Assembly: GCF_011045215.1 (NCBI RefSeq)
Contig: NZ_CP049201.1
DNA length: 64,000 nucleotides
Strand: one strand, 5' to 3'
Source of the DNA: Escherichia coli
GTDB taxonomy: Bacteria; Pseudomonadota; Gammaproteobacteria; Enterobacterales; Enterobacteriaceae
The notes beneath the pieces are model-generated. The model was not told the DNA's origin and ran no database searches. It was given only the letters and a program-made list of their open reading frames with translations. The position numbers and the translations under genes were made by a program. Position 1 is the stretch's first letter, and each line of letters opens with the position of its first letter. Below are positions 2,443-54,874 of the stretch, in pieces.

Positions 2443-3606
2443 GTGGAACAGATTAATTCAAATAAAAAACACTCTAACAGAAGAAAATACTTTTCTTTAT
2501 TGGCGATAGTTTTATTTATTGCGTTTTCAGGTGCTTATGCCTATTGGTCAATGGAATTAGAAGACATGATTAGTACAGATGACGCCTATGTCACGGGGAA
2601 TGCAGATCCAATTTCTGCACAAGTCTCAGGTAGTGTCACTGTCGTTAATCATAAAGATACGAACTACGTTCGACAGGGTGACATTTTAGTTTCACTGGAT
2701 AAAACTGATGCCACTATCGCACTCAATAAAGCTAAAAATAATCTGGCAAATATTGTTCGGCAAACGAATAAACTGTACTTACAGGATAAACAATACAGTG
2801 CCGAAGTCGCTTCAGCACGTATTCAGTATCAACAATCTTTAGAAGATTATAACCGTCGTGTGCCTTTAGCGAAGCAGGGGGTTATTTCAAAAGAAACGCT
2901 GGAGCATACCAAAGATACGTTAATAAGTAGCAAAGCGGCATTGAATGCCGCTATCCAGGCTTATAAAGCGAATAAAGCTTTAGTAATGAACACACCATTA
3001 AACCGTCAGCCACAAGTCGTTGAAGCTGCGGATGCAACCAAAGAAGCCTGGTTGGCGCTTAAACGTACGGATATTAAGAGTCCGGTTACCGGCTATATTG
3101 CCCAGCGAAGTGTTCAGGTCGGCGAAACAGTGAGTCCCGGACAATCGTTAATGGCTGTCGTACCAGCACGTCAAATGTGGGTTAATGCCAACTTTAAAGA
3201 AACACAACTCACGGATGTACGGATTGGTCAATCGGTCAATATTATCAGCGATCTTTATGGTGAGAATGTTGTGTTTCATGGCCGGGTGACAGGGATCAAT
3301 ATGGGAACCGGCAATGCGTTCTCCTTATTACCTGCACAAAATGCGACAGGGAACTGGATCAAAATCGTTCAGCGTGTACCGGTTGAAGTTTCTCTTGATC
3401 CAAAAGAACTCATGGAACACCCCTTGCGCATTGGTTTATCGATGACTGCAACTATTGATACGAAGAACGAAGACATTGCTGAGATGCCTGAGCTGGCTTC
3501 AACCGTGACGTCCATGCCGGCTTATACCAGTAAGGCTTTAGTTATCGATACCAGTCCGATAGAAAAAGAAATTAGCAACATTATTTCGCATAATGGACAA
3601 CTTTAA
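2443..3606 (+). CDS. emrK: Multidrug efflux membrane fusion protein EmrK
   Basis: 387-aa ORF, EmrA-like periplasmic adaptor with N-terminal membrane anchor; 1-bp overlap with emrY. Confidence 0.92.
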   Translation: MEQINSNKKHSNRRKYFSLLAIVLFIAFSGAYAYWSMELEDMISTDDAYVTGNADPISAQVSGSVTVVNHKDTNYVRQGDILVSLDKTDATIALNKAKNNLANIVRQTNKLYLQDKQYSAEVASARIQYQQSLEDYNRRVPLAKQGVISKETLEHTKDTLISSKAALNAAIQAYKANKALVMNTPLNRQPQVVEAADATKEAWLALKRTDIKSPVTGYIAQRSVQVGETVSPGQSLMAVVPARQMWVNANFKETQLTDVRIGQSVNIISDLYGENVVFHGRVTGINMGTGNAFSLLPAQNATGNWIKIVQRVPVEVSLDPKELMEHPLRIGLSMTATIDTKNEDIAEMPELASTVTSMPAYTSKALVIDTSPIEKEISNIISHNGQL

Positions 3607-42362: not shown

Positions 42363-42402
42363 GGATACCAAAAAGAAAACCCGCAGTTTTTACGCTGCGG
42401 GC
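42363..42402 (-). terminator. Rho-independent terminator downstream of the hok-like ORF
   Basis: Minus strand reads CCCGCAG-CGTAAAAA-CTGCGGG followed by TTTTCTTTTT. Confidence 0.55.
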
Positions 42403-42490
42403 TTGTTGTTCATGTCTGTGAGATAGGGTGCCTTATCGACCTTACCCTGACAACCGATTGACGGGGGATTGCTCCCCCGTCGCGGTTTCC

Positions 42491-42631
42491 TTACTGCTTA
42501 CACTGTAAGAACGCCGCAAACTCCGCTCCCCAGAAGCTCATCCGTATTTCGCATAGCGAACCGTGCAGCATCCAGATGATGAGGATTGCCGTCACGCAGA
42601 ACGTGATGGCCGTAAGCGATTTTTGCGACAT
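42491..42631 (-). CDS. Hok/Gef-family type I toxin-like small membrane protein (46 aa)
   Basis: Manual translation MSQKSLTAITFCVTAILIIWMLHGSLCEIRMSFWGAEFAAFLQCKQ; AAGGAG RBS 8 nt upstream; single TMS then SLCEIR...G.E.AAF motif as in recalled Hok/Gef; not in ORF track (<60 aa). Confidence 0.5.
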   Translation of the reverse strand: MSQKSLTAITFCVTAILIIWMLHGSLCEIRMSFWGAEFAAFLQCKQ

Positions 42632-42821
42632 AGCACTTGCTCCTTTTCCGGAGAGGCGCTAACCTTTCACTTGTCAAGGTAATGCGGTTAGGGCCTCGGT
42701 TAAACAGAGATGTTTTCCGGGGCCTTTCCACATCTGGCCTTCGGGTATTCCCTCCGACCATCAGCCGAAAGGCACCCGCGCGTAATCTATCGCTTTTTTG
42801 TTACTCCGGCAATTCTGCCTG

Positions 42822-43082
42822 TTAATTCTGAGGTAAAGGCAAACTCATCTGATTGTTTCCCCTGTGTGAAGCTGGCAGATCATGCCATGGGATACCTTCT
42901 GATGAGTGAACGCCGGAGGCGTGTTTCGATGTAAATTTATGGAAAGCTTCCAGTGTTGAGAAGCATACGCCGCATTCCAGGTTGTTACACTGGTAATACT
43001 TTTGCCGCACGGTGTTTGAATCATTTTCCGGACGACTGGTGCGGATACGGGCAGATGCGCCACAAAGCGGACAACGGAACAT
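42822..43082 (-). CDS. ogr: Ogr/Delta-family zinc-finger late-gene transcriptional activator
   Basis: MFRCPLCGASARIRTSR...YYQCNNLECGVCFST matches the recalled P2 Ogr C4 zinc finger. Confidence 0.85.
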   Translation of the reverse strand: MFRCPLCGASARIRTSRPENDSNTVRQKYYQCNNLECGVCFSTLEAFHKFTSKHASGVHSSEGIPWHDLPASHRGNNQMSLPLPQN

Positions 43083-43124: not shown

Positions 43125-44234
43125 TCACTCTGTTTCCGCTATCCATTCCGGGATTTTTGCCTCAAGCTCAAGCTGTGTGGTAAAGCCACTGTTATCAATG
43201 GTGTGCTCGGCTTTTGCAATAATCCAGTCCTGATTATCAATCTCGCTTTTAAATCCTGTTACCGTGCCATGCATTTCGGGGTAGAGTTCTGCGCGTCCGC
43301 GTGCCAGTGTGATGGAGAATGATGCGGCTCCGCGTTGTAGTTGTTGCCACTTTGCCGCCGCTGCGCGTCTTGCTGCCTGCTCGTTCTGATAAGTCTTGCG
43401 TAACACAAACACATTGCCTTCCGCGCCTTCCATATAATCACCTTCACGGCTGCTGCTTTTCTCTTTTTTCGGTTTTGGCGGTTTGCGGCGTTTCACGCTG
43501 ACTTTTTTCTTTTTCCCGTAATTAAGATCAAGCCAGTAAGCGCGTACCCCCGTATACGCCTCGCGGTCAGCAATGCGGAACTGATGGCGATCGCCGCTGC
43601 TGCGTGTGATGGCGAACGAGGGCAACGGCTGGCCCTGTGCGTTCACGCCACCGCCGGGCATGATGAATAACAGATTACCGCTTTTTACCGTGGTGATTGC
43701 GCCCAGCATTTCCGCCATGCGCGTAAGGAAGGACATGTCACTTTCTTCGGTCTGGTCGGCGTGGTCGATTTCGATATCCATCAGCATTTCGCTGATTTGC
43801 GGTTTCAGACCGTACCGATGAGCGATGGCGGATACCACACGCTCAACGGTCACATCATGCCAGGACATCTCACGTTTAACGTTAAATTCATCCCGAAAAT
43901 CTGCGCTTCTGGCTGAAACAGTCAGCCTGTCCGGCGGTCCTTCGTGAGCGATTTCATCAACAATGTAAGTGCCTTTTTCTGTCAGCGGTTCTCCTTTCCA
44001 GCCAATGAGAACCGTCAGGCGCGCGCCCCGTGGCGGTAGCTGCAACTGACCATCCGCATCATCCAGCGTGATGGTGAGCTGGTCCGCCTCAAATCCCCGG
44101 TTGTCGGTCAGTGACAGGCTCATCAGGCGCTCGGCCACGCCTGACAGCGTTTTACCCTCCGCGAGAATATCAAAATCCGGCATTTTCACGGGGTCTGTGC
44201 CCTGACTGAGCAATTGCATGGTGGTATCGGTCAT
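43125..44234 (-). CDS. P2 gpD-like tail protein
   Basis: Start at MTDTTMQLLSQGTDPVKMPDFDILAEGKTLSGVAERLMSL (GGGAGG RBS); matches recalled P2 gpD; ORF-track start 44366 rejected. Confidence 0.85.
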   Translation of the reverse strand: MTDTTMQLLSQGTDPVKMPDFDILAEGKTLSGVAERLMSLSLTDNRGFEADQLTITLDDADGQLQLPPRGARLTVLIGWKGEPLTEKGTYIVDEIAHEGPPDRLTVSARSADFRDEFNVKREMSWHDVTVERVVSAIAHRYGLKPQISEMLMDIEIDHADQTEESDMSFLTRMAEMLGAITTVKSGNLLFIMPGGGVNAQGQPLPSFAITRSSGDRHQFRIADREAYTGVRAYWLDLNYGKKKKVSVKRRKPPKPKKEKSSSREGDYMEGAEGNVFVLRKTYQNEQAARRAAAAKWQQLQRGAASFSITLARGRAELYPEMHGTVTGFKSEIDNQDWIIAKAEHTIDNSGFTTQLELEAKIPEWIAETE

Positions 44235-44391
44235 CTGTTCCCTCCCTGTGCGGCATGGTCGCATGTGCGTGCGGAGGGGGTTACTGCTTTTTGTTGTCGC
44301 CGTGGCGGGAGAACGGCGCAGGGGTGAGATTACGCGCGTGGTGGGTGATGATTGTTGCCGAATCATTTAACGGATACAAGGGGCTGAAGCT

Positions 44392-45576
44392 ATGAGTGAA
44401 ACTCGTTTTCATGGTGCCCGTGTTACGGAAAATACCGACCTGGTAACAGCGATTAACGATGTTGATTCCAGCGTTATCGGTATCGTGGCAACGGCGGATG
44501 ATGCGGACGCGAAGCTGTTCCCGCTGAACAAGCCCACACTGCTGACCCGCGTCAATGACGTGCTGGGAAAATGCGGGACAACGGGGACGCTTTATCGTGC
44601 GCTTAAGGCCATCGCAGACCAGGTGAGCACAAAGGTGATCGTCGTTCGCGTGGCTGAACACAAAGAAGAAGACGGAAAAACGCAGGATCAACTGGTTATC
44701 GGTGGTTCTGAATCTGACGGCAGCTATACGGGGATGTATGCGCTGCTTGTTGCAGAGCAGGATGAAAGCATCGGATACCGTCCGCGTATTCTGGCCGCGC
44801 CGGAGCTGGACACGGAGGCGGTAACAAAATCCCTGTGCGTGATTGCGGGTAAACTGCGCGCGTTTGTGTATGCCTCATGTCACGGCTGTAACACGATGGC
44901 TGAGGCGATTACCTACCGCCAGAAATTCAACGAACGTGAGGTGATGCTCTTATGGCCGGACTTCATCGCCTACAACCCGAAAAGTGGCAAAAACGAAACG
45001 TTCCCCGCGCCTGCCTATGCGTGCGGCCTTCGTGCGTACATTGACCATGAGCAGGGATGGCACAAATCACTGTCCAACGTTCCGGTTAAAAATGTGCTGG
45101 GGATGTCGAGGCATGTGTTCTGGTCGTTGCAGGCCGAAGACAGCGATGCCAACAGCCTCAACAACAAAGAAATCACGACCATTATTCGTCGCAACGGGTT
45201 CCGCTTCTGGGGCAACCGCACACCGGAAACGAACGCCTACATCTTTGAGGTGTATACCCGAACCGCACAGGTGCTGGCTGATTCAATTGCGGAAGCGCAG
45301 TTTGAAACCATCGACAGTCCACTGACGCCTGCGAACGTGAAGGATGTTATCAGTGCCATCAGGGCAAAACTGGATTCACTGGTTACTGCCGGGAAACTGA
45401 TTGGCGCGGAGTGCTGGTATGACGTGGTGGATAACAGCACCACGGATTTACGTCAGGGGCGTGTGCGTATTCGCTACAAATATACGCCTGTTCCCCCGCT
45501 GGAAGACATGGAGCTTTACCAGACGTTTACTGATGAATACTTTGAACCCGCATTTGCGGTGCTGGGAGGTGCCTGA
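44392..45576 (+). CDS. Contractile tail sheath protein (P2 gpFI-like)
   Basis: 394-aa ORF; matches recalled gpFI (e.g. RTAQVLADSIAEAQ, YKYTPVPPLE). Confidence 0.9.
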   Translation: MSETRFHGARVTENTDLVTAINDVDSSVIGIVATADDADAKLFPLNKPTLLTRVNDVLGKCGTTGTLYRALKAIADQVSTKVIVVRVAEHKEEDGKTQDQLVIGGSESDGSYTGMYALLVAEQDESIGYRPRILAAPELDTEAVTKSLCVIAGKLRAFVYASCHGCNTMAEAITYRQKFNEREVMLLWPDFIAYNPKSGKNETFPAPAYACGLRAYIDHEQGWHKSLSNVPVKNVLGMSRHVFWSLQAEDSDANSLNNKEITTIIRRNGFRFWGNRTPETNAYIFEVYTRTAQVLADSIAEAQFETIDSPLTPANVKDVISAIRAKLDSLVTAGKLIGAECWYDVVDNSTTDLRQGRVRIRYKYTPVPPLEDMELYQTFTDEYFEPAFAVLGGA

Positions 45577-46088
45577 TGGCTGTGCCAAAACATCTTCGCT
45601 TTTTTACGCTGTTTGTGGATGGTGAAAACGAAGTGGGTAAGGTGACGTCCGTCACTCTGCCTAAGCTGACGCGCAAAACCGACAGCTACCGGGGTGGCGG
45701 CATGATGGGTGCGGTAAGTATTGATCTCGGTCTGGACGACTCCGCGCTTGATGCGAGCTTTGTCATGGGGGGCGCAGTTCGTGAGCTGTTCCTTAAGTAT
45801 GGCGGCACGATTGACGGCACGCTGCTGCGTTTTGCGGGTGAATACTACACCGATGCAGAAAGCGACCTGTATGAAGTCGAAATGCGCGGACGTGTGACGG
45901 AAATTGATATGGGGGAAGCCAAACAGGGCGAAGCCACATCACACACTTACGCCATTAAAAACACCTACTACAAGCTGAGTGTTAACGATCGCCCGTTGTG
46001 GGAGATTGACCTGCTGAACTTCATTTACCGGAAGGACGGCAAGGACATTGTGCCCGATCGCATCCGTTCCGCGCTTGGGCTTGGCTGA
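45576..46088 (+). CDS. Tail tube protein (P2 gpFII-like)
   Basis: 170-aa ORF immediately after sheath gene with 1-bp overlap. Confidence 0.85.
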   Translation: MAVPKHLRFFTLFVDGENEVGKVTSVTLPKLTRKTDSYRGGGMMGAVSIDLGLDDSALDASFVMGGAVRELFLKYGGTIDGTLLRFAGEYYTDAESDLYEVEMRGRVTEIDMGEAKQGEATSHTYAIKNTYYKLSVNDRPLWEIDLLNFIYRKDGKDIVPDRIRSALGLG

Positions 46089-46142
46089 TAAGTAATATGC
46101 AGGCGGCGCAGTGCGTCGCCTCTGACTGAAAGGAGTTTCCTG

Positions 46143-46508
46143 ATGAAAGAGACGAAAAACATCGATACCGAAAACACGGTAGTTACTGACACTGTGAAAG
46201 AAACCAGTGAGCGTGGCGTAAAACTTACCCAACCAATTGAGCGAGGCGGCGAAAAAATCACGTATGTGGAGATCACCGGGGCTATTGAGCAGGCTGGATC
46301 TCTGCGAGATTTGTCGCTGTCTGATGTGCTGAATCTGAAAGCGGAATCCATGTTTACGCTGCTGTCACGCGTGACATCACCGCGACTGGATGAAGTGACG
46401 ATCAAAAAAATGGCATCCCGTGACTTTATTCAGTTATGTGTGGTTGCCGTAAATTTTTTGAGCGGTGCGGACTCTGGCGGGAAGAACGAACAGGCGACGG
46501 AAGCCTGA
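46143..46508 (+). CDS. Tail assembly chaperone gpE; the -1 frameshift product E+E' extends to 46672
   Basis: 121-aa ORF followed by an overlapping -1 frame ORF (to 46672) whose sequence (PAEIFMMTPGEVVSWRERAA) resembles gpE' extensions; position between tube and tape-measure genes. Confidence 0.7.
   Translation: MKETKNIDTENTVVTDTVKETSERGVKLTQPIERGGEKITYVEITGAIEQAGSLRDLSLSDVLNLKAESMFTLLSRVTSPRLDEVTIKKMASRDFIQLCVVAVNFLSGADSGGKNEQATEA
46454..46460 (+). other. Slippery heptamer TTTTTTG for programmed -1 ribosomal frameshift (E to E+E')
   Basis: Zero frame reads AAT TTT TTG (N F L); shifting -1 at T TTT TTG gives FFERCGLW..., identical to the downstream overlapping ORF. Confidence 0.55.
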
Positions 46509-46658
46509 TCACGGTTGTGTGCTTTGAGCACATAGAAGACTTTGTGGCGGATATTGCCGCCATTTTTAACTGGTCGCCCGCCGAAATCTTCATGATGACG
46601 CCCGGCGAAGTGGTTAGCTGGCGTGAGCGGGCGGCACTTCGCAGCGGGAATGCAGACA

Positions 46659-49466
46659 ATGAAGACTCTTGATATCCGGGTCGCTTTCAGCGCCGTTGAC
46701 AGGCTGACCCGGCCTGCCGAAAACGCCCGCCGCCTGATGGGGCAGTTTGGTGACTCCATCCAGCGAACGCAGGGGGCGATCAAAAATCTCGAGCGTCAGG
46801 CGCGTTCATTTGAGCGCGCCCGTGACGCTGTCAGTAAAGCGGATGCTGGCATATTGAAAGCACGACGCCAGCTTAACGCCCTTAATCAGTTACAACGCAC
46901 GGGTACAGTGCTCAGCGAAAAACAACAAAAGCTGATGCAGCAGTTAAGCACCCGGCTTGAACGCCTGAATGAATCGCGCACACGTGAAATTCAGAAAATG
47001 CGGGAGCTTGGCGGAGAGCTGAAACGCCACGGCATTTCCCTGACAGGCAGCGATAACACCATCCAGCAGGCCATCAGACGCACCGAACAGTACAACAACC
47101 AGCTTGAACGCGAACGGCAGGCGCTTGCGCGTGTAACGCGGGCGCGTGAGCGGTATTCGCGCGTGCAGGAAACCGCGGGAAAACTGAAAACAGGTGGTGC
47201 GCTGGCAATTGGTGCGGCAGCGGCGGGCGGCTATGCTGCCGGGCGTTTTTTGCAGCCTGCGATCGGGTTCGGGAAAGAGATGTCCCGCGTTCAGGCGCTG
47301 ACGCGAATCGACCAGAACAGCCCACAGTTTAAGGCGCTGCGTGAGCAGGCGTTAAAACTTGGCTCTGAAACGCAGTTCACCGCTGGAGATGCCGCCAGTG
47401 GACAGGCATTTCTTGCAATGGCTGGCTTCACACCACAGGCCATTCAGGCTGCGCTTCCCGGTGTGCTGAGCATGGCAACGGCTGGCGGTATGGATCTCGG
47501 TGAGACGGCGGATATTGGCTCAAACATCCTGACGCAGTTCGGCCTTTCTGCCGACCAGATGGACCGGGTCGGTGACACGCTCACCGCAGCGTTTACCCGT
47601 ACCAACACTGACCTTCGCGCACTGGGCGAAACCATGAAATATGCAGGTCCGGTGGCGGGCAAGCTGGGAATATCGCTGGAGCAGGCCGCAGCGATGGCGG
47701 GCGTGCTGGCGAATATGGGTATCAGGGGAAGTGATGCCGGGACGGCAATGCGTGCCAGCCTGGCTCGTCTGGCATCACCGCCAAAGGCGGCAGCAGAGGC
47801 GCTGAAAGAGCTTGGTGTGGCAGTCTCTGACGCGAACGGCAAAATGCGCCCGATGGAGGATGTGCTGGCCGACCTTTATAAAGCCACCCGCAAATACGGG
47901 GAAGTTGACCGGGTATCGTTCTTTAAGGACATTGCCGGAGAAGAGGCTTTCACATCGTTTATGGCGCTCGTTGATGCAGCGGGTGACGGTTCCTTACCTA
48001 AACTGAGAAAAGAACTTGAAGGCGCGCGCGGTGAGGCTGAACGCACAGCAAAGGTTATGGCCAACAACCTTGACGGCGATCTGAAATCACTCGGCAGTGC
48101 ATGGGAAGGGTTGCGCATCCGCATTGCAGATCTGATTGACGGTCCGCTGCGTTCTGTCACGCAGTGGCTCACACGGGTGGTATCAAGGGTGACGGCGCTG
48201 GCGCAGGCCCATCCGACACTGACGCGCCAGCTACTGATAGCAGGCGGTGCGTTGCTGGCAATGACTGCAACGGTTGGCTCGTTGTCGCTGGCTATTGGTG
48301 TGCTTGCTGGCCCGCTGGCAAAACTGCGTCTTGGTTTTTCTCTCCTGACCGGATCAATGAATGCTGTCAGGGTCCTGCCAGCACTATGGGGAATGGTGAC
48401 GGGTTCCGTTTCTTTGCTGGGAGGTGCTATCGGGGCGCTGTTCAGTCCGGTTGGTCTTATCGTGGCTGCGCTTGCCGGAGCTGCCGTTCTTATCTGGAAA
48501 TACTGGGATCCCATCAGGGCATTTTTTGCCGGGGTGTTCAGCGGGATTATGGAAAGGCTGATCCCGTTGCGCGAAACCTTTGAACAGTTTGGTCCTGTTT
48601 TTGACGCAATCGGAAGCGGGATCAGCCAGGTGTTTAACTGGTTTAAATCGCTGCTGTCACCGATGGAGTCCAGCAAGGAAACGCTGGATAAATGTACCAG
48701 TGCTGGCGAGATATTCGGTAACGTTCTTGGTGGCGCGTTACAGCTTGTTCTGACGCCTGCAAAAATGTTGCTGGATACGCTGGCGTGGATACTTGAAAAA
48801 CTCGGTGTTCTTCCGGATGAAGCGGAAAGGGCGAGAAAGAAAATCGAAGACGCACAGCGTGCGGCCATTCTTCAGGACAAGGTTGCCTTGCTTCAGGGGG
48901 ACCTGGCGAAAATCAATCCGCCGAAGCCTGTGGAAAATGGCAATGGCACCGGAGGTGATAAACCCAAAGACAACAAACCGCTCACAGACAGCAATACCGG
49001 GACGCTACGCAGACTCAGCAAAATTGCTGATAACACAGGTAAGCTGGTTGATGAGACGAAAAAACGCATTGGCCCCGGCGATATTGTCTTTAAGAACCTG
49101 CCCCGCGCACTTGCTGTTCGTGGGGAGTGGCAGGAGCGGAAGATTGCGCAGGTCAGTAAGCCTGCCCCCGCAATTAATATCACACCCGTGGTCCCGGCTC
49201 CGCTGCCTCCGGCGCTGGTCCCTGTTGTTGCGGCCAGCTCCCGCCCGGTGGCGGAGGCTATACGATCTCCAGTGGCATCAGTTCCTGTAACTTCCCGTAA
49301 CCGGGAGCCTGTTGCCTCCGGATTTGGTGGTGAAATTCATGTTCATCTGCATAACGTTGTTACGCAGAATCCCCGCGAACTGGCGAAACTAGTCGGTGAA
49401 ATGGTCAGGGCAGAAATGGAACGGCGCGCCCGTGCCGGGCGTGGCAGTTTTTACGATAAAGATTGA
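46659..49466 (+). CDS. Tail tape measure protein (P2 gpT-like)
   Basis: About 935-aa coiled-coil / Gly-Ala-rich protein; start taken at MKTLDIR overlapping the E' stop (ORF-track start 46623 alternative). Confidence 0.85.
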   Translation: MKTLDIRVAFSAVDRLTRPAENARRLMGQFGDSIQRTQGAIKNLERQARSFERARDAVSKADAGILKARRQLNALNQLQRTGTVLSEKQQKLMQQLSTRLERLNESRTREIQKMRELGGELKRHGISLTGSDNTIQQAIRRTEQYNNQLERERQALARVTRARERYSRVQETAGKLKTGGALAIGAAAAGGYAAGRFLQPAIGFGKEMSRVQALTRIDQNSPQFKALREQALKLGSETQFTAGDAASGQAFLAMAGFTPQAIQAALPGVLSMATAGGMDLGETADIGSNILTQFGLSADQMDRVGDTLTAAFTRTNTDLRALGETMKYAGPVAGKLGISLEQAAAMAGVLANMGIRGSDAGTAMRASLARLASPPKAAAEALKELGVAVSDANGKMRPMEDVLADLYKATRKYGEVDRVSFFKDIAGEEAFTSFMALVDAAGDGSLPKLRKELEGARGEAERTAKVMANNLDGDLKSLGSAWEGLRIRIADLIDGPLRSVTQWLTRVVSRVTALAQAHPTLTRQLLIAGGALLAMTATVGSLSLAIGVLAGPLAKLRLGFSLLTGSMNAVRVLPALWGMVTGSVSLLGGAIGALFSPVGLIVAALAGAAVLIWKYWDPIRAFFAGVFSGIMERLIPLRETFEQFGPVFDAIGSGISQVFNWFKSLLSPMESSKETLDKCTSAGEIFGNVLGGALQLVLTPAKMLLDTLAWILEKLGVLPDEAERARKKIEDAQRAAILQDKVALLQGDLAKINPPKPVENGNGTGGDKPKDNKPLTDSNTGTLRRLSKIADNTGKLVDETKKRIGPGDIVFKNLPRALAVRGEWQERKIAQVSKPAPAINITPVVPAPLPPALVPVVAASSRPVAEAIRSPVASVPVTSRNREPVASGFGGEIHVHLHNVVTQNPRELAKLVGEMVRAEMERRARAGRGSFYDKD

Positions 49467-49472
49467 GGAGTC

Positions 49473-49967
49473 ATGGCCATGATGATGATCTACGGCATGT
49501 TTGTTTTTGAGCTGCGCACGCTGCCGCATCAGCAGTTACAGCAAAACAAAAGCTGGCGGCATGTGAAAAATGAACGCGTTAACCGTTCAGCAAGCTGGCA
49601 GTATATCGGTGCAGGTGATGATCGCATCGTTCTTTCTGGTGTGCTTTATCCTGAAATTACAGGTGGCGAAGTGTCGCTGTCGCTGCTGACCACGCAGGCG
49701 TATACAGGACGACCCTGGCCTTTGATTGATGGTGTCGGGCAGATTTACGGCATGTATGTCCTGACCGGAACGAATACGACCCGTTCCGAGTTTGATCGCT
49801 ACGGTAAGGCGAAAAAGATAGAATTTTCACTGACCCTTGAACGCTGTGATGAGGATTTGCGGGAGCGCCTGCAATCCTCATCGTTCAGTGATATGCTGTC
49901 CGGCTTCAAAGATAAGGTCACATCATCCCTTAACAGCGCGGCCAGCTCCGTTAAAGGGCTGTTTTGA
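49473..49967 (+). CDS. Tail protein gpU-like
   Basis: 164-aa ORF after tape measure; matches recalled P2 gpU pattern. Confidence 0.8.
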   Translation: MAMMMIYGMFVFELRTLPHQQLQQNKSWRHVKNERVNRSASWQYIGAGDDRIVLSGVLYPEITGGEVSLSLLTTQAYTGRPWPLIDGVGQIYGMYVLTGTNTTRSEFDRYGKAKKIEFSLTLERCDEDLRERLQSSSFSDMLSGFKDKVTSSLNSAASSVKGLF

Positions 49968-49974
49968 TTAACGC

Positions 49975-50004
49975 AAAACCGCTAATGGTCAGATTAGCGG
50001 TTTT
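49975..50004. terminator. Hairpin between convergent gpU and invertase genes; probable bidirectional terminator, overlaps the last invertase codons
   Basis: AAAACCGCTAAT-GGTCAG-ATTAGCGGTTTT, 12-bp perfect stem flanked by A/T runs. Confidence 0.45.
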
Positions 50005-50611
50005 CATTTTCCTGAGTCTGCCTGGTTGTTTCTTCAGCCTGTATATCGCCTACAGGGTGATAACGATAAATCGTCGATATGCCGATGCCGTAAATGATCG
50101 CCAGTTGTTTCCTGTCATGACCGTTTTTGATCAGCCTTGCTATTTGCTCATGCTGTTCTTTTGTCAGCTTCGGGCGACGTCCGCCTGTGCGCCCCCGTGC
50201 GCGCGCTGCCGCCAGTCCGGCCAGTGTACGTTCAACAATTAATTCACGTTCCATTTCAGCCAGGGCACCCATCACGTGGAAGAAAAAACGCCCCATTGGA
50301 GAAGATGTATCTATGCTGTCGGTCAGACTGCGAAAATTAATCCCTCGCTCCCGTAGTTCTCCGACGAGAGAAATCAGATGTTTCATGCTTCGCCCAAGGC
50401 GATCCAGTTTCCAGACAACCAGCGTGTCACCTTTTTGAAGCCGCTTTAAAGCGCGTTTTAATCCCGGTCGGTCTGTCTTTGTCCCGCTTAATTTATCTTC
50501 AAATATTTGTTCACATCCTGCACAAACAAGAGCGTTTCGTTGCAGGTCTGTATTCTGGTCATTTGTTGATACCCTTACATAACCAATCAGCACACTGAAT
50601 CTCCCGTCCAA
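49994..50611 (-). CDS. Site-specific DNA invertase, serine recombinase of the Gin/Pin/Hin/Cin family
   Basis: LIGYVRVSTNDQNTDLQRNAL N-terminus with catalytic Ser and C-terminal HTH; true start may be the GTG at 50593. Confidence 0.9.
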   Translation of the reverse strand: MDGRFSVLIGYVRVSTNDQNTDLQRNALVCAGCEQIFEDKLSGTKTDRPGLKRALKRLQKGDTLVVWKLDRLGRSMKHLISLVGELRERGINFRSLTDSIDTSSPMGRFFFHVMGALAEMERELIVERTLAGLAAARARGRTGGRRPKLTKEQHEQIARLIKNGHDRKQLAIIYGIGISTIYRYHPVGDIQAEETTRQTQENENR

Positions 50612-50657
50612 AAGCGCAAATCATGCCATGCAGGCCGGAAACGGCCATTATCTAAAA

Positions 50658-50683
50658 CCTCGGTTTACAGGAAACGGTAAATC
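50658..50683. other. Inversion crossover site (gix/pix-like), left boundary of the invertible segment
   Basis: TTATCTAAAACCTCGGTTTACAGGAA; 12-bp half-sites around a 2-bp core; inverted copy at 53717-53742. Confidence 0.65.
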
Positions 50684-51618
50684 AGGCTTCTGGCGCATTA
50701 CAGAAAAACCAGAACGGCGCAGATATTCCGGGAAAAGATACCTTCACCAAAAATATTGGGGCCTGCCGCGCATATAGCGCATGGCTGGATATTGGTGGCG
50801 ATAGTCAGGTCTGGACAACCGCGCAATTTATTTCGTGGCTGGAGAGTCAGGGAGCATTTAACCATCCTTACTGGATGTGCAAAGGCTCATGGGCTTATGC
50901 AAATAATAAGGTCATTACAGATACAGGTTGCGGAAATATTTGTCTTGCAGGTGCTGTGGTGGAAGTTATTGGCACTCGCGGCGCAATGACCATACGCGTT
51001 ACCACGCCGAGCACGTCCAGCGGTGGAGGAATTACTAACGCTCAATTCACTTATATTAATCATGGTGATGCTTACGCTCCTGGCTGGCGACGAGACTACA
51101 ACACGAAAAATCAACAACCTGCATTTGCTTTAGGGCAAACAGGAAGCACTGTCGGAAATGATAAAGCTGTTGGCTGGAACTGGAATAGCGGGGTCTATAA
51201 CGCAAATATTGGTGGCGCATCGACATTAATCCTCCACTTCAATATGAATACGGGGAGCTGCCCTGCTGCACAGTTCCGCGTGAATTACAGAAATGGCGGA
51301 ATCTTTTATCGTTCAGCGCGTGATGGTTATGGCTTTGAAGCTGACTGGTCAGAGTTTTACACCACAACCCGCAAACCCTCTGCGGGAGATGTTGGTGCAT
51401 ATACGCAGGCAGAATGTAACTCAAGGTTTATTACAGGTATTCGCCTTGGCGGTCTGTCATCTGTTCAGACATGGAATGGTCCCGGCTGGTCTGACAGGTC
51501 AGGTTATGTCGTTACGGGTTCAGTTAACGGAAACCGTGATGAATTAATTGATACAACTCAGGCAAGGCCAATTCAGTATTGCATTAATGGGACGTGGTAT
51601 AACGCGGGGAGTATTTAA
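50684..51618 (+). CDS. Alternative tail fibre C-terminal receptor-binding domain (silent in this orientation; no start codon of its own)
   Basis: Frame open from the crossover site ([10 protein letters not shown]...) to stop at 51618, in the same codon phase relative to the site as the expressed copy; ends ...[12 protein letters not shown] like the expressed fibre. Confidence 0.7.
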
Positions 51619-51620
51619 CG

Positions 51621-52154
51621 ATGATGCACTTAAAAAACATTACTGCTGGCAACCCTAAAACAAAAGAGCAATACCAGCTAACGAAACAATTTAACATCAA
51701 ATGGCTTTATTCAGAGGATGGAAAAAACTGGTATGAGGAACAAAAGAATTTCCAGCCAGACACTTTGAAAATGGTCTATGACCATAACGGCGTTATTATT
51801 TGTATTGAAAAGGATGTTTCAGCAATTAATCCGGAAGGCGCAAGCGTCGTTGAATTACCTGATATTACAGCAAATCGCCGTGCTGACATTTCGGGTAAAT
51901 GGATGTTCAAAGATGGCGTAGTGGTAAAGCGAACTTATACCGAGGAAGAGCAGAGGCAGCAGGCGGAAAATGAAAAGCAAAGCCTGCTACAGCTCGTCAG
52001 GGATAAAACCCAGCTATGGGACTCACAGCTACGGCTGGGCATCATTTCCGACGAGAATAAACAAAAATTAACCGAGTGGATGCTCTATGCGCAGAAAGTC
52101 GAATCCACAGACACCTCCAGCCTGCCAGTAACGTTTCCAGGACAACCAGAATGA
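51621..52154 (+). CDS. Alternative tail fibre assembly chaperone (U'-like)
   Basis: 177-aa ORF starting [22 protein letters not shown], paralogous to the minus-strand chaperone at 52183-52710. Confidence 0.8.
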
Positions 52155-52182
52155 GACAAGGCCCGCTATCGGGCCTTAATTT

Positions 52183-52710
52183 TTATTCAGGCTTTTGTGG
52201 CCATTCAGGATTTGCCGTATCCACACGGCTGACCAGAACACTGTAGCGTTCCCATGACTCCAGTCGTGTGCGTTCCTCATCCGTCGCCATATTCAGCCTG
52301 ACAGCGCGTTCCAGTGGCTGAATAACGCTTTCAGCTTCGGAAAGTAACGCAGCCTTTTGTGATTCGGCCTGTTGTTGTTGCTCGTCTGCCGTATAAATCC
52401 GTTTAACTACAGCTCCATCCTTAAACATCCACTTTCCTGAACCATCAGCGCGGCGGTTGGCTGTAATATCGGGAACCTCAACGACGCTAAAACCTTCAGG
52501 GTTAAGCGTGGAGGCATCTTTAGTAATGGCGACAATAATATTATTTGCATCGTAAACAATCTTTATTGTGTCTGGCTGAAAGTTTTTCACTTCCTCATAC
52601 CAGTTTTTTCCGTCCTCAGAGTAAAGCCAGATAACTCCGTGTTTCTTTGTTAACTCATACTGTTCCAGTGTTTTAGCGTTACCCGCTTTTATGTTCTTTA
52701 AGTGCATCAT
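52183..52710 (-). CDS. Tail fibre assembly chaperone (P2 gpG / Mu U-like), currently expressed orientation
   Basis: 175-aa ORF starting [22 protein letters not shown] directly downstream of the tail fibre gene. Confidence 0.8.
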
Positions 52711-52711
52711 A

Positions 52712-54874
52712 TTAAACGCTCGCTACATTATACCAGGTGCCATTTATATACTTTTGAACGGGTCTGTAATAAACGCCCGCTATATTATCGGCAGAGTTGG
52801 AGCCTGTATCCTGAACATTAATACCAGACAATACATGACCTGACGGGCACTGGAAATTCCATGTTTGCCAGTTGTTCACTCCATAATATTGCTGTGAACC
52901 AAGTCGAACATCTTTCACATATCTGGAATCAAAATTGCCATAATTGCCGGGAATAACTTGCGCACCGCAAAGCCAGTTCCCGTTATTATCCATGTACGCC
53001 TGACCATCGGTGCCATTGGCTGTCCTTGAGTTATTAATCATGTAGATGCCAAATTGCTTATTTCCCAGACCGCCAATCATAAATTTTCGGTCGGCATGGT
53101 CCTGACGGAGCAAGGCCTGGGCGCTATCAGTGTTAACTATATTTTTCCCAAAGATAGCGTTGTTATCGCGCATCTGAATCCACATACCATTACCGCTGTT
53201 AATAGCAAAACGGTCTGAAAGTGTTTCTCCTGAAACATTAAGGCCACGCCCCATCGAAACAGCGCCAGTAGCGTTATTAATCCATAATGGCCTTAATCCG
53301 TTATAAGTCCCCATGTTGTCACCGGAGTTTGTCAACATGAAGTATGTATTTGAACCATCATTACGAATAAAGAATCCGTAACTACCATAAGCAATACGTA
53401 GGCCGTTTGCTGATTTTGATATGACTTCGCCATTTACAATGGCATTGACAAGAACATACAAAGCATCCCATTTAAGATTCATCAGGTCTTTTGTTGTGGT
53501 GCCTTGTTTGCTTCTCCATTTGAAATATTCATTGCCGTTGTCGCCTGTTTCAAACCACATGTATGAATCAGTATCGCTGTCGGCATCATTTTTAAATCCA
53601 ATCTTTGCCCAGTCAGTATTTCGAATCCAGGCAAGGATTGAGTCGTTTTCAAAAGTAAGTCCACCGGACAAGGTATCGCCTGTCTTTTGAACGGCGTTAC
53701 CAGCCTTGTTTACCGTTTCCTGTAAACCGAGGTATTCGATAACGGCGGCAACGGTCGATTTCGCAAGAATATCCCGCCCAACTTTTGTCAGGGTTGCCAA
53801 GCTGGCAACATCATTCCCCGTAAAATACGGAAACCTGTCTGCCGCAGTAGCAAGCCCGGCCAGCGCCGTCAGGGTGGCATCTTTCGGTTGCTTACCCGCA
53901 AGCGCGTTAGTCATGGTGGTCGCAAAATTCGGGTCGTTGCCCAACGCCGCAGCCAGCTCGTTCAGCGTATTCAGTGCGTCAGGCGACGAGTCCACGAGGG
54001 CAGCGATCGCAGCCATAACATAAGCCGTGCTTGCGATCTGAGTATTGTTAGTACCTTTTGGCGCAGTTGGTGTTGTTGGTGTTCCGGTCAGTGCCGGGCT
54101 GTTTAATGGGGCTTTCTTGTTCGTTTCATCCATTACCGCCTTAACCGCTTTTGGTGTCGCTGCCAGCGTTTCAGACGTGCTGTTGGTTGCACTACTAAGC
54201 TGGACAAGGCCTTTTCGCGTTGTAGTGGCGTCCTGAGCGGTATATTTTCCGTTAGCCAGGTCATACGCGGCCTTTACTGCTTTCGGCGTTGCAGCCTGCG
54301 TTTCAGAATCGTTGTTAGTGGCGCTACTGAGTTGAACAAAGCCTTTTGCGGTCAGCGAGGCATCCGGGTGACGTCGTGACTGTTCATGCTCTTTCAGTTT
54401 GTCATTCACGTAATCCACTGTGGCCATAACCATGGTGTTATCCACGGTAAGCGCCACGGTGGCAGTGCTGGATACGGTCAGAATGGTGCGAAATGTTTGT
54501 GCACGTCCGGACCCTTCGGCAACGGCTGGCTTGTAACTTTCGGCAGTATTGCCCACCGCGATCAAATCGCCGTGCTCATCAAACACACCAATTTCCCGGA
54601 TCCAGAATCCGCCCGTTTCAGGAGGAATAACCAGCTCTGCAATAATGCGGTTCTGATGTGTTGCGTCCAGGATGATGCGATTAACAGTATGTCGCCACAC
54701 CTCATGCACCAGACGGGTCTGCTTACTGTCTGGTGTGGGCAATGTACCGCCACCGTCGCCCACGGCCATATGAGTCAGGCGGACAGGCTTACCATCTGGC
54801 GCGGCTGCCTGAGCTAATTTTTTGGCACCCGTATCGGTGATAACGGTTTTAAATTTTCGTGTTGTGGTACTCAT
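52712..54874 (-). CDS. Tail fibre protein (P2 gpH-like) with constant N-terminal part and invertible C-terminal part
   Basis: 720-aa ORF; N-terminal region matches recalled P2 gpH; the crossover site falls at ...[13 protein letters not shown]... Confidence 0.9.
53717..53742. other. Inversion crossover site (gix/pix-like), right boundary, inside the tail fibre gene
   Basis: TTCCTGTAAACCGAGGTATTCGATAA, inverted relative to 50658-50683 with 17 of 17 identical bases from the outer end and minor divergence in the other half-site. Confidence 0.65.

Follow-up and report, generated by a model that had tools for sequence, protein, structure and literature searches.

Organization of the tail genes in the window

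The window, the whole 64-kb stretch of E. coli DNA that was analysed, contains a block of tail genes (FI to U) on the plus strand, while D and ogr to its left and, to its right, the invertase gene, G, H, I, J, W, V and the remaining late genes lie on the minus strand. This strand arrangement, proposed in the initial annotation, was confirmed by ORF layout combined with family scans. NCBIfam profiles named only the tube, the tape measure and the recombinase, and the remaining genes were assigned through PHROGs. The features at and around the block are:

42822-43082, minus strand: ogr, Ogr/Delta-type zinc-finger late-gene activator (translation MFRCPLCG...CNNLEC; PHROG 603 transcriptional regulator, E 3.9e-15)
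43125-44234, minus strand: D, tail/baseplate hub protein, 369 aa (PHROG 52, E 2e-166)
44235-44391: D/FI intergenic spacer, 157 bp, left junction of the inverted block (from the sequence)
44392-45576, plus strand: FI, tail sheath (PHROG 23, E 1e-127; 46% identical to P2 FI)
45576-46088, plus strand: FII, tail tube (TIGR01611 tail_tube, 122.8 bits, exceeding the cut-off)
46143-46508, plus strand: E, tail assembly chaperone (PHROG 103)
46143-46672, plus strand: E+E', tail assembly chaperones (-1 frameshift at T_TTT_TTG 46454-46460, end at 46672)
46623/46659-49466, plus strand: T, tape measure (TIGR01760, 293 bits; PHROG 28)
49473-49967, plus strand: U, tail protein, final gene of the inverted block (PHROG 76, E 8e-75)
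49968-49993: U/invertase spacer, right junction
49975-50004: terminator-like hairpin, 12-bp stem, AAAACCGCTAAT-GGTCAG-ATTAGCGGTTTT, scored on the plus strand (terminator scan and sequence)
49994-50593, minus strand: Gin-like serine DNA invertase (PHROG 125, E 2e-94; N-terminus VLIGYVRVSTNDQ)

The ogr gene follows D on the same strand. The longest ORF of D reaches 44366, and its start was set at 44234 from homologues and a GGGAGGG ribosome-binding site; the D protein is 49% identical to P2 D and 99% identical to P88 D. The -1 frame ORF of E' spans 46436-46672 and includes the TTTTTTG slippery heptamer. The start of T was placed at the ATG at 46659 following the P88 annotation, and for the invertase the GTG at 50593 is the probable start. 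The terminator-like hairpin sits between the convergent U and invertase genes, and the A run on its left arm suggests that it may act both ways. A search of positions 41000-64000 against Rfam at the gathering threshold gave no match.

By its sequence, the element is a P88-like prophage (genus Xuanwuvirus, Peduoviridae) in the E. coli chromosome. The closest known systems are Escherichia phage P88 (NC_026014; Xuanwuvirus P88) and its relatives Shae_phiSM and P884B11. Positions 42370-64000 are collinear with P88 13437-35188 in two long blocks of 96.7% and 97.9% nucleotide identity, a comparison covering the late half of the prophage, the early half falling outside the window. The P88 annotation reads fibre genes, invertase (+), U-T-E'-E-FII-FI (-) and D (+), and the order characteristic of Xuanwuvirus (fibre genes, opposite-strand U-T-E-FII-FI, then D-ogr) is that of the window. 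The two agree fully in gene order and strands, including the divergent D/FI and the U/invertase junctions; they differ in the H tail-fibre protein, only 78% identical, and in places within the invertible-segment region. P88 can be induced and is lytic, and PhiSM shows spontaneous activity (PMC6456863).

Comparison with P2 bore out that the FI-U block is inverted relative to the P2 gene order, with breakpoints where they had been placed, in the D/FI and U/invertase spacers. The F operon of P2 (PF-FI-FII-E/E'-T-U-D-ogr) contains the same genes in the same internal order, encoding proteins 32-49% identical to those of the window. Both also have the T6G -1 frameshift site for E/E', the dyad-hexamer geometry of the FI promoter and ogr downstream of D. 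They differ in the orientation of the FI-U part, whose flip leaves D and ogr as a divergent unit of their own, and in the loss of the overlap that P2 has between the U stop and the D start. The initial annotation was therefore right that D is divergently transcribed and must have a promoter of its own. Where P2 has its non-essential Z/fun region, the window has the invertase and the invertible fibre segment, and some relatives have nothing.

Distribution of the inverted order

A total of 13 phage records (P88 and 12 others) span 8 kb over both junctions in one piece, and 1,355 of the 5,426 complete E. coli genomes carry an uninterrupted copy of the 1-kb D/FI junction. The inverted order was found in all 80 IMG/VR loci with a D at least 99% identical and in all 74 further loci with a D 63-100% identical. 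These 154 loci include Senquatrovirus and Reginaelenavirus types, and none of them carries the block in the opposite orientation. SEN5 and Kp4871-3, from the sister genera Senquatrovirus and Reginaelenavirus, also have the inverted order; order was inspected in three of about 48 phage records with D identity of at least 60%, D homologues being present in about 526 phage records overall.

The co-directional order is found in P2, Wadgaonvirus, Tigrvirus, Citexvirus, VP58.5 and Arya. In Wadgaonvirus 500465-1 it is shared by all 70 of its informative relatives, and phiE202 and BR319a have it like VP58.5 and Arya. The phages described in a paper on Burkholderia P2-like phages likewise have the canonical order. 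The distribution of the two orders indicates an old inversion that became fixed in one clade and does not prevent a phage from being infectious.

The block orientation opposite to P2 is thus the normal, long-fixed order of common P88-like E. coli prophages. The initial annotation had implied an unusual event in this genome or a possible misassembly, and had named a divergent D/FI arrangement as the common state of reference P2-like genomes as the observation that would count against it; this is the state found in the P88-like clade. A recent strain-private inversion, or an assembly error flipping a 5.6-kb contig piece, would account for the departure from the textbook P2 map and for two junctions in short intergenic spacers, but is refuted, and retains practically no probability, because the junctions are identical base for base in the 1,355 genomes, 13 phage records and 154 IMG/VR loci and relatives with protein identities of only 55-70% still have the order. 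As the normal map of a very common prophage family, the feature does not warrant a flag as a rearrangement or assembly problem. It is instead a rearrangement that cleanly sets one clade of Peduoviridae apart and can help to classify P2-like prophages.

Papers on P88, Citrobacter PhiSM and SEN4/SEN5 yielded no discussion of gene order, and a literature search found no description of a D/FI promoter or of the block rearrangement.

The invertase and the tail-fibre segment

The invertase gene, 92-96% identical in nucleotides to gin of Mu and D108, abuts the right junction of the block and adjoins a second feature:

50648-53742: invertible tail-fibre segment, bounded by gix-like sites at 50648-50673 and 53717-53742 (repeat pair and gix search)

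This segment carries alternative fibre tip and assembly genes, and with its inverted gix-like sites and adjoining invertase it resembles the segments of the Gin/Cin/Hin/Pin systems, such as G of Mu and C of P1. Such a system accounts for 50648-53742 only. The FI-U block could in principle be a second segment inverted by the same enzyme and present in both orientations in the population, since Gin-family enzymes invert DNA between inverted sites and the gene lies next to the junction. A Gin-type segment has crossover sites at both ends and occurs in both orientations among relatives; neither is seen for FI-U. Even with three mismatches allowed, only two gix-like sites occur in the 64 kb, both around the fibre segment, in agreement with the earlier observation of no such site at either block junction, and no inverted repeat links 44235-44391 to 49968-49993. 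The block is never flipped within the clade, SEN5 and many contigs have it inverted without any invertase, and 500465-1 combines an invertase with the canonical order. A second invertible segment is accordingly very improbable, and the invertase was rejected as the cause of the inversion, contrary to the tie implied in the initial annotation. The same presence and absence patterns indicate that the invertase and the invertible segment are, by sequence comparison, a separate insertion at the G/U junction and not a breakpoint marker.

A candidate two-way late promoter between D and FI

The D/FI spacer had been singled out as a place for Ogr-dependent late-promoter motifs. An exact search of the window for the P2 box TGT-N12-ACA gave no match in this spacer, where the right half reads AGA; comparison of the P/O and D/FI spacers nevertheless detected a dyad differing by one base, with a hexamer on either side. 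The predicted elements, with a second copy of the dyad, are:

44295-44312: predicted activator dyad TGTCGCCGTGGCGGGAGA (TGT-N12-AGA), one-base variant of the P2 TGT-N12-ACA box
44347-44352, plus strand: -10-like hexamer GATGAT, FI-ward candidate promoter (PF equivalent), 34 nt past the dyad
44255-44260, minus strand: -10-like hexamer GACCAT, proposed D-ward late promoter, 34 nt from the other dyad end
63204-63221: second dyad copy TGTAAGAAAACGGCCAGA, in the P/O spacer 63132-63285

The longer form TTGT-N12-AGAAC occurs exactly twice in the window, in these two spacers. Among 112 unique relatives the dyad stands at the aligned place in 111, with the exact TGT-N12-ACA in 35, and the D-ward dyad-hexamer spacing is 34-35 nt in 103 of 110 scored sequences. 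Many of the sampled sequences are closely related, so these raw counts overstate independence and 19 diverged representatives are a fairer test. The pattern nAnnAT peaks at offset 34 in 14 of the 19 on the FI-ward side and is found there in 13 on the D-ward side, against a background of 0-3. The FI-side spacing is the same in canonical phages and in P2 PF; one canonical subgroup has nAnnAT at offset 33 on the side away from FI, which makes the control imperfect. Overall, the footprint of the spacer is conserved over 20 diverged relatives, and a scan for sigma-70 consensus promoters found none in its 157 bp.

Late promoters of this type have a TGT-N12-ACA dyad whose centre lies about 55 nt before the start, a -10-like hexamer at a fixed distance without a good -35, and an Ogr/Delta-family zinc-finger activator encoded by the element. 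In the window the dyad has one mismatch and a position given relative to predicted starts, the hexamers lie 34 nt away on both sides, and the activator is encoded by ogr. The D/FI spacer thus looks like a two-way Ogr-dependent late promoter. Ogr would bind at the dyad, with predicted transcription starts near 44359 (plus strand) toward FI and near 44248 (minus strand) toward D, the latter leaving a predicted D leader of only about 14 nt. The D-ward promoter is a conserved footprint only.

A known parallel is the PP/PO pair of P2, where one central dyad has a hexamer 34 nt from each end; these distances follow from the -10 positions that the annotated starts of PP and PO imply. The two spacers are of similar length (about 155-175 bp), and in each, one of the two intervals between dyad and hexamer contains a CG-rich stretch (the P-ward one in P2, the D-ward one in the window). 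The D/FI spacer differs in the genes controlled (tail, not head and packaging), in the AGA right half of its dyad and in that its function is predicted. In the P/O spacer of the window itself, the P-ward hexamer TAATCT (63256-63261) is 34 nt from the dyad and the O-ward CATCAT 35 nt.

When the D/FI spacers of Kp4871-3 and SEN5 are aligned to the P/O spacer of the same genome in flipped orientation, the match is better than in all 300 shuffles, whereas the two spacers of the window have no significant overall similarity. A duplication of the P/O spacer was not retained as the origin of the D/FI spacer, the significant similarity in Kp4871-3 and SEN5 extending across the functional motifs only; shared constraint and common origin cannot be separated from these sequences.

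Next to the D-ward hexamer there is also a conserved alternating CG tract.

Origin of the inverted block and control of D

P2-like genomes are mosaic, and the order could also have arisen if a foreign myovirus module (sheath, tube and tape measure) had replaced the original one and been inserted oppositely, with no inversion in place. The T and E proteins are only about 32-33% identical to those of P2, below D (49%) and the baseplate proteins (54-61%). However, T and E evolve fast in all tailed phages. FI, FII and U each rank the relatives as D does (Kp4871-3 of Reginaelenavirus, then SEN5 of Senquatrovirus, 500465-1 of Wadgaonvirus and P2), and the FI-ward promoter is still laid out like PF, its -10 standing 34 nt from the dyad and the ATG following at a similar distance. 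Replacement by a foreign module is therefore unlikely.

A somewhat stronger challenge concerns D alone, which might be driven by another signal, such as a weak constitutive promoter, with the conserved hexamer incidental. GACCAT resembles a -10 poorly, the leader predicted for D is very short and the neighbouring CG tract is left unexplained. Yet the hexamer stays exactly 34 nt from the dyad in spite of divergence around it, the same composite layout recurs at P/O, divergent starts are annotated in the P2 P/O spacer, and the D/FI spacer lacks a sigma-70 consensus promoter. We regard a separate signal for D as improbable, though less so than a foreign module.

The explanation that best accounts for the whole, and that we hold with considerable confidence, is a single ancestral inversion that was inherited and is not a switch, the PF dyad serving, as we infer, two divergent late promoters. 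The segment comprising the PF promoter and FI-FII-E/E'-T-U would have been inverted once, in the common ancestor of the P88-like phages, Reginaelenavirus and Senquatrovirus, one end falling between PF and the tail-fibre genes and the other where U meets D. The resulting order would have been inherited since, unconnected with the Gin-like invertase, which would flip the tail-fibre segment only. Such an inversion would have brought the symmetric Ogr-binding dyad of PF beside D, where a single dyad could serve both FI-U and a clade-specific D-ogr unit, on the model of the single P2 activator site that serves PP and PO.

Somewhat favoured, but held with much less assurance, is a scenario in which the symmetry of the dyad, able to fire both ways, let the inversion first be tolerated and later become fixed. 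A PP-like half-promoter (the CG-rich tract and a hexamer at 34 nt) would have arisen or been copied beside D, giving the phage two two-way promoters, P/O and D/FI, and a short Ogr-activated D-ogr transcript that would feed back on ogr. If the two-way D/FI promoter is real, it would illustrate how a symmetric activator site permits an operon to be split and one part flipped without loss of co-regulation.

Gene organisation of the prophage

The part of the window from ~42370 to its right end matches Escherichia phage P88 (Xuanwuvirus, Peduoviridae) collinearly, with 96.7-97.9% identity, and is preceded on the left by flk, yfcJ, fabB and mnmC of the E. coli chromosome. The genus of this prophage is already known, and published reference genomes display the gene order: in the deposited P88 annotation, as in the window, the fibre genes are followed by the invertase on one strand, U-T-E'-E-FII-FI on the other, then D. 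An ORF map and family scans gave the layout listed here, in which the strands assigned by the initial annotation (ogr and D minus, FI to U plus, invertase and later genes minus) proved correct.

Genes of the tail region (ORF map; family or motif in brackets)
42822-43082, minus: ogr (PHROG 603; Ogr/Delta-type CxxC...CxxxxC motif in the product)
43125-44234, minus: D (PHROG 52)
44392-45576, plus: FI (PHROG 23)
45576-46088, plus: FII, tail tube (TIGR01611)
46143-46508, plus: E (PHROG 103)
46623/46659-49466, plus: T, tape measure (TIGR01760)
49473-49967, plus: U (PHROG 76)
49994-50593, minus: serine invertase (PHROG 125)
right of the invertase, minus: G, H, I, J, W, V and onward

The E/E' frameshift is supported by a T_TTT_TTG heptamer at 46454-46460 and a -1 frame ORF ending at 46672. 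A hairpin with a 12-bp stem (49975-50004), located 3' of U between the convergent U and invertase genes, looks like a terminator.

Distribution and origin of the inverted tail block

The inversion of the tail block FI-FII-E/E'-T-U had been taken as a departure from the common state, a view that did not hold, as P2-like reference genomes show the same divergent D/FI arrangement as the common state. An 8-kb query across both block junctions (D/FI spacer, 44235-44391; U/invertase spacer, 49968-49993) matched without interruption in 13 phage records. Of 5,426 complete E. coli genomes, 1,355 hold an intact copy of a 1-kb probe that reaches from the 5' part of D across the spacer into the 5' part of FI. 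FI-U is divergent from D in all 80 IMG/VR loci with D of at least 99% identity. A second IMG/VR scan, seeded on an alignment led by the D of Salmonella phage SEN5, yielded the inverted order in 74/74 further loci, with D 63-100% identical to that of the window. SEN5 (Senquatrovirus) and Klebsiella phage Kp4871-3 (Reginaelenavirus) share this order. P2, Wadgaonvirus 500465-1, Burkholderia phiE202, Pseudomonas BR319a, Vibrio VP58.5 and Enterobacter phage Arya have the co-directional order FI-FII-E-T-U-D, as do all 70 informative relatives of 500465-1. Among the phage records, identity to the window's D is at least 63% in inverted genomes and at most 53% in canonical ones, with none between.

By parsimony, the co-directional order is ancestral, with a single inversion at the base of this enterobacterial clade. 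D, FI, FII and U each rank the relatives identically, which fits inversion in place followed by vertical descent. Since P88 can be induced and is lytic, and PhiSM shows spontaneous activity (PMC6456863), the inverted arrangement is fully functional. The inversion is real but ordinary, and ranks low as an anomaly. Some P88-like prophages (e.g. NC_049344, NC_049341) carry IS100 (IS21-family) insertions within the tail block and one IMG/VR locus has an odd U/invertase order; both seem to be secondary disruptions of this arrangement.

The invertase and the tail-fibre segment

The absence of gix-like sites at the block breakpoints, noted initially, was borne out by a search allowing up to three mismatches: the sole two copies of the site TTCCTGTAAACCGAGGTWTTNGATAA, at 50648-50673 and 53717-53742 (repeat pair I2), bound the tail-fibre segment. 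No inverted repeat joining the two block junctions was found. The inverted block occurs without an invertase in SEN5 and many IMG/VR loci, and an invertase accompanies the canonical order in 500465-1, which makes the invertase cassette an independent insertion at the G/U junction. The invertible segment (50644-53746) is similar to Mu G and contains genes facing H/G. The adjacent invertase DNA is 92-96% identical to Mu and D108 gin, whereas the rest of the prophage is far less close to any Mu-like phage.

Genes of the tail-fibre region
50875-51618, plus: alternative fibre tip, within the invertible segment
51621-52154, plus: assembly gene, within the invertible segment
52183-54874, minus: H/G, facing the two preceding genes

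A putative two-way late promoter between D and FI

The 157-bp D/FI spacer contains no sigma-70 consensus promoter. Its comparison with the spacer between late genes P and O (63132-63285) revealed the motif TTGT-N12-AGAAC, present exactly twice in 64 kb (44294-44314 and 63203-63223) and one base different from TGT-N12-ACA, the late-promoter box of P2. This dyad occurs in 111 of 112 unique D/FI spacers (exact ACA in 35), and an alignment of 20 diverged spacers shows both halves conserved around 12 freely variable bases. Exactly 34 nt beyond the dyad, an nAnnAT hexamer is found on the FI side in 14/19 and on the D side in 13/19 diverged representatives; any other offset from 15 to 55 gives 0-3 of 19.

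Hexamers of the D/FI spacer
44347-44352, plus: FI-side hexamer GATGAT
44255-44260, minus: D-side hexamer GACCAT

The P2 record annotates a single activator site for both PP and PO, the promoters of P and O, with mapped starts at 3016 and 3127; each of these starts implies a hexamer 34 nt from the dyad (3063-3080), and the P/O spacer of the window has the same layout. In canonical relatives, the dyad is accompanied by the FI-ward hexamer at 34 nt, but the opposite side has no conserved hexamer at that distance; one subgroup has nAnnAT there at 33. For Kp4871-3 and SEN5, alignment of the FI/D spacer with the flipped P/O spacer was better than for any of 300 shuffles, the D-ward half matching the P-ward half, CGCGCGCG tract included; overall similarity between the two spacers of the window is not significant.

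Judging from these motifs, the D/FI spacer is probably a two-way Ogr-dependent late promoter, in which FI-U would have kept PF, the FI operon promoter, and D-ogr would have a PP-like promoter specific to the clade. Transcription would start near 44359 (FI-ward) and 44248 (D-ward). This putative shared-dyad promoter is the sole new element and would add a new case of a design known from P2; no published discussion of it or of the FI-U rearrangement was found in the literature searched, whose coverage is incomplete.

On the D-ward side of the dyad, before the hexamer, there is an alternating CG (or purine-pyrimidine) tract (window 44261-44274; aligned positions in relatives L086-L158). Its sequence is CGCGCGCG in most relatives and GCATGTGCGTGCGG in the window, and it ranks among the best-conserved portions of the spacer; the P/O spacer has a similar tract in its P-ward half in the window (~63245-63252), Kp4871-3, SEN5 and P2. 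Small hypothetical ORFs annotated in or across the D/FI spacer (window 44282-44413, minus; P88 gp50; SEN5 SEN5_27) differ in strand between records, overlap the proposed promoter and the FI start, and are probably spurious calls.

S and V overlap in the window, so that V (~57229) is preceded neither by an orf30 gap nor by a recognisable PV dyad, in contrast to P2. The 137-bp gap before R (58322-58458) likewise showed no dyad, so the genes from O to G may form a single long late transcript, leaving two dyads for the whole late regulon.

Prophage boundary and neighbouring features

P88 homology stops at 42370 and the boundary with the chromosome falls at ~42370-42410, where facing terminator-like hairpins (42377-42404) adjoin the flk side. 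This host junction and D/FI occur together in 288 complete E. coli genomes, which indicates a recurrent integration site. P88 has an annotated MokW-like hok/gef host-killing gene (gp52) located between ogr and the prophage end; the homologous place in the window is ~42500-42640 (minus), and Rfam gave no matching antisense RNA at the gathering threshold. Far outside the prophage, a tRNA-Arg(CCU) gene (12374-12448) adjoins a low-GC stretch (14001-16000, GC 0.33-0.42) that may be another island.
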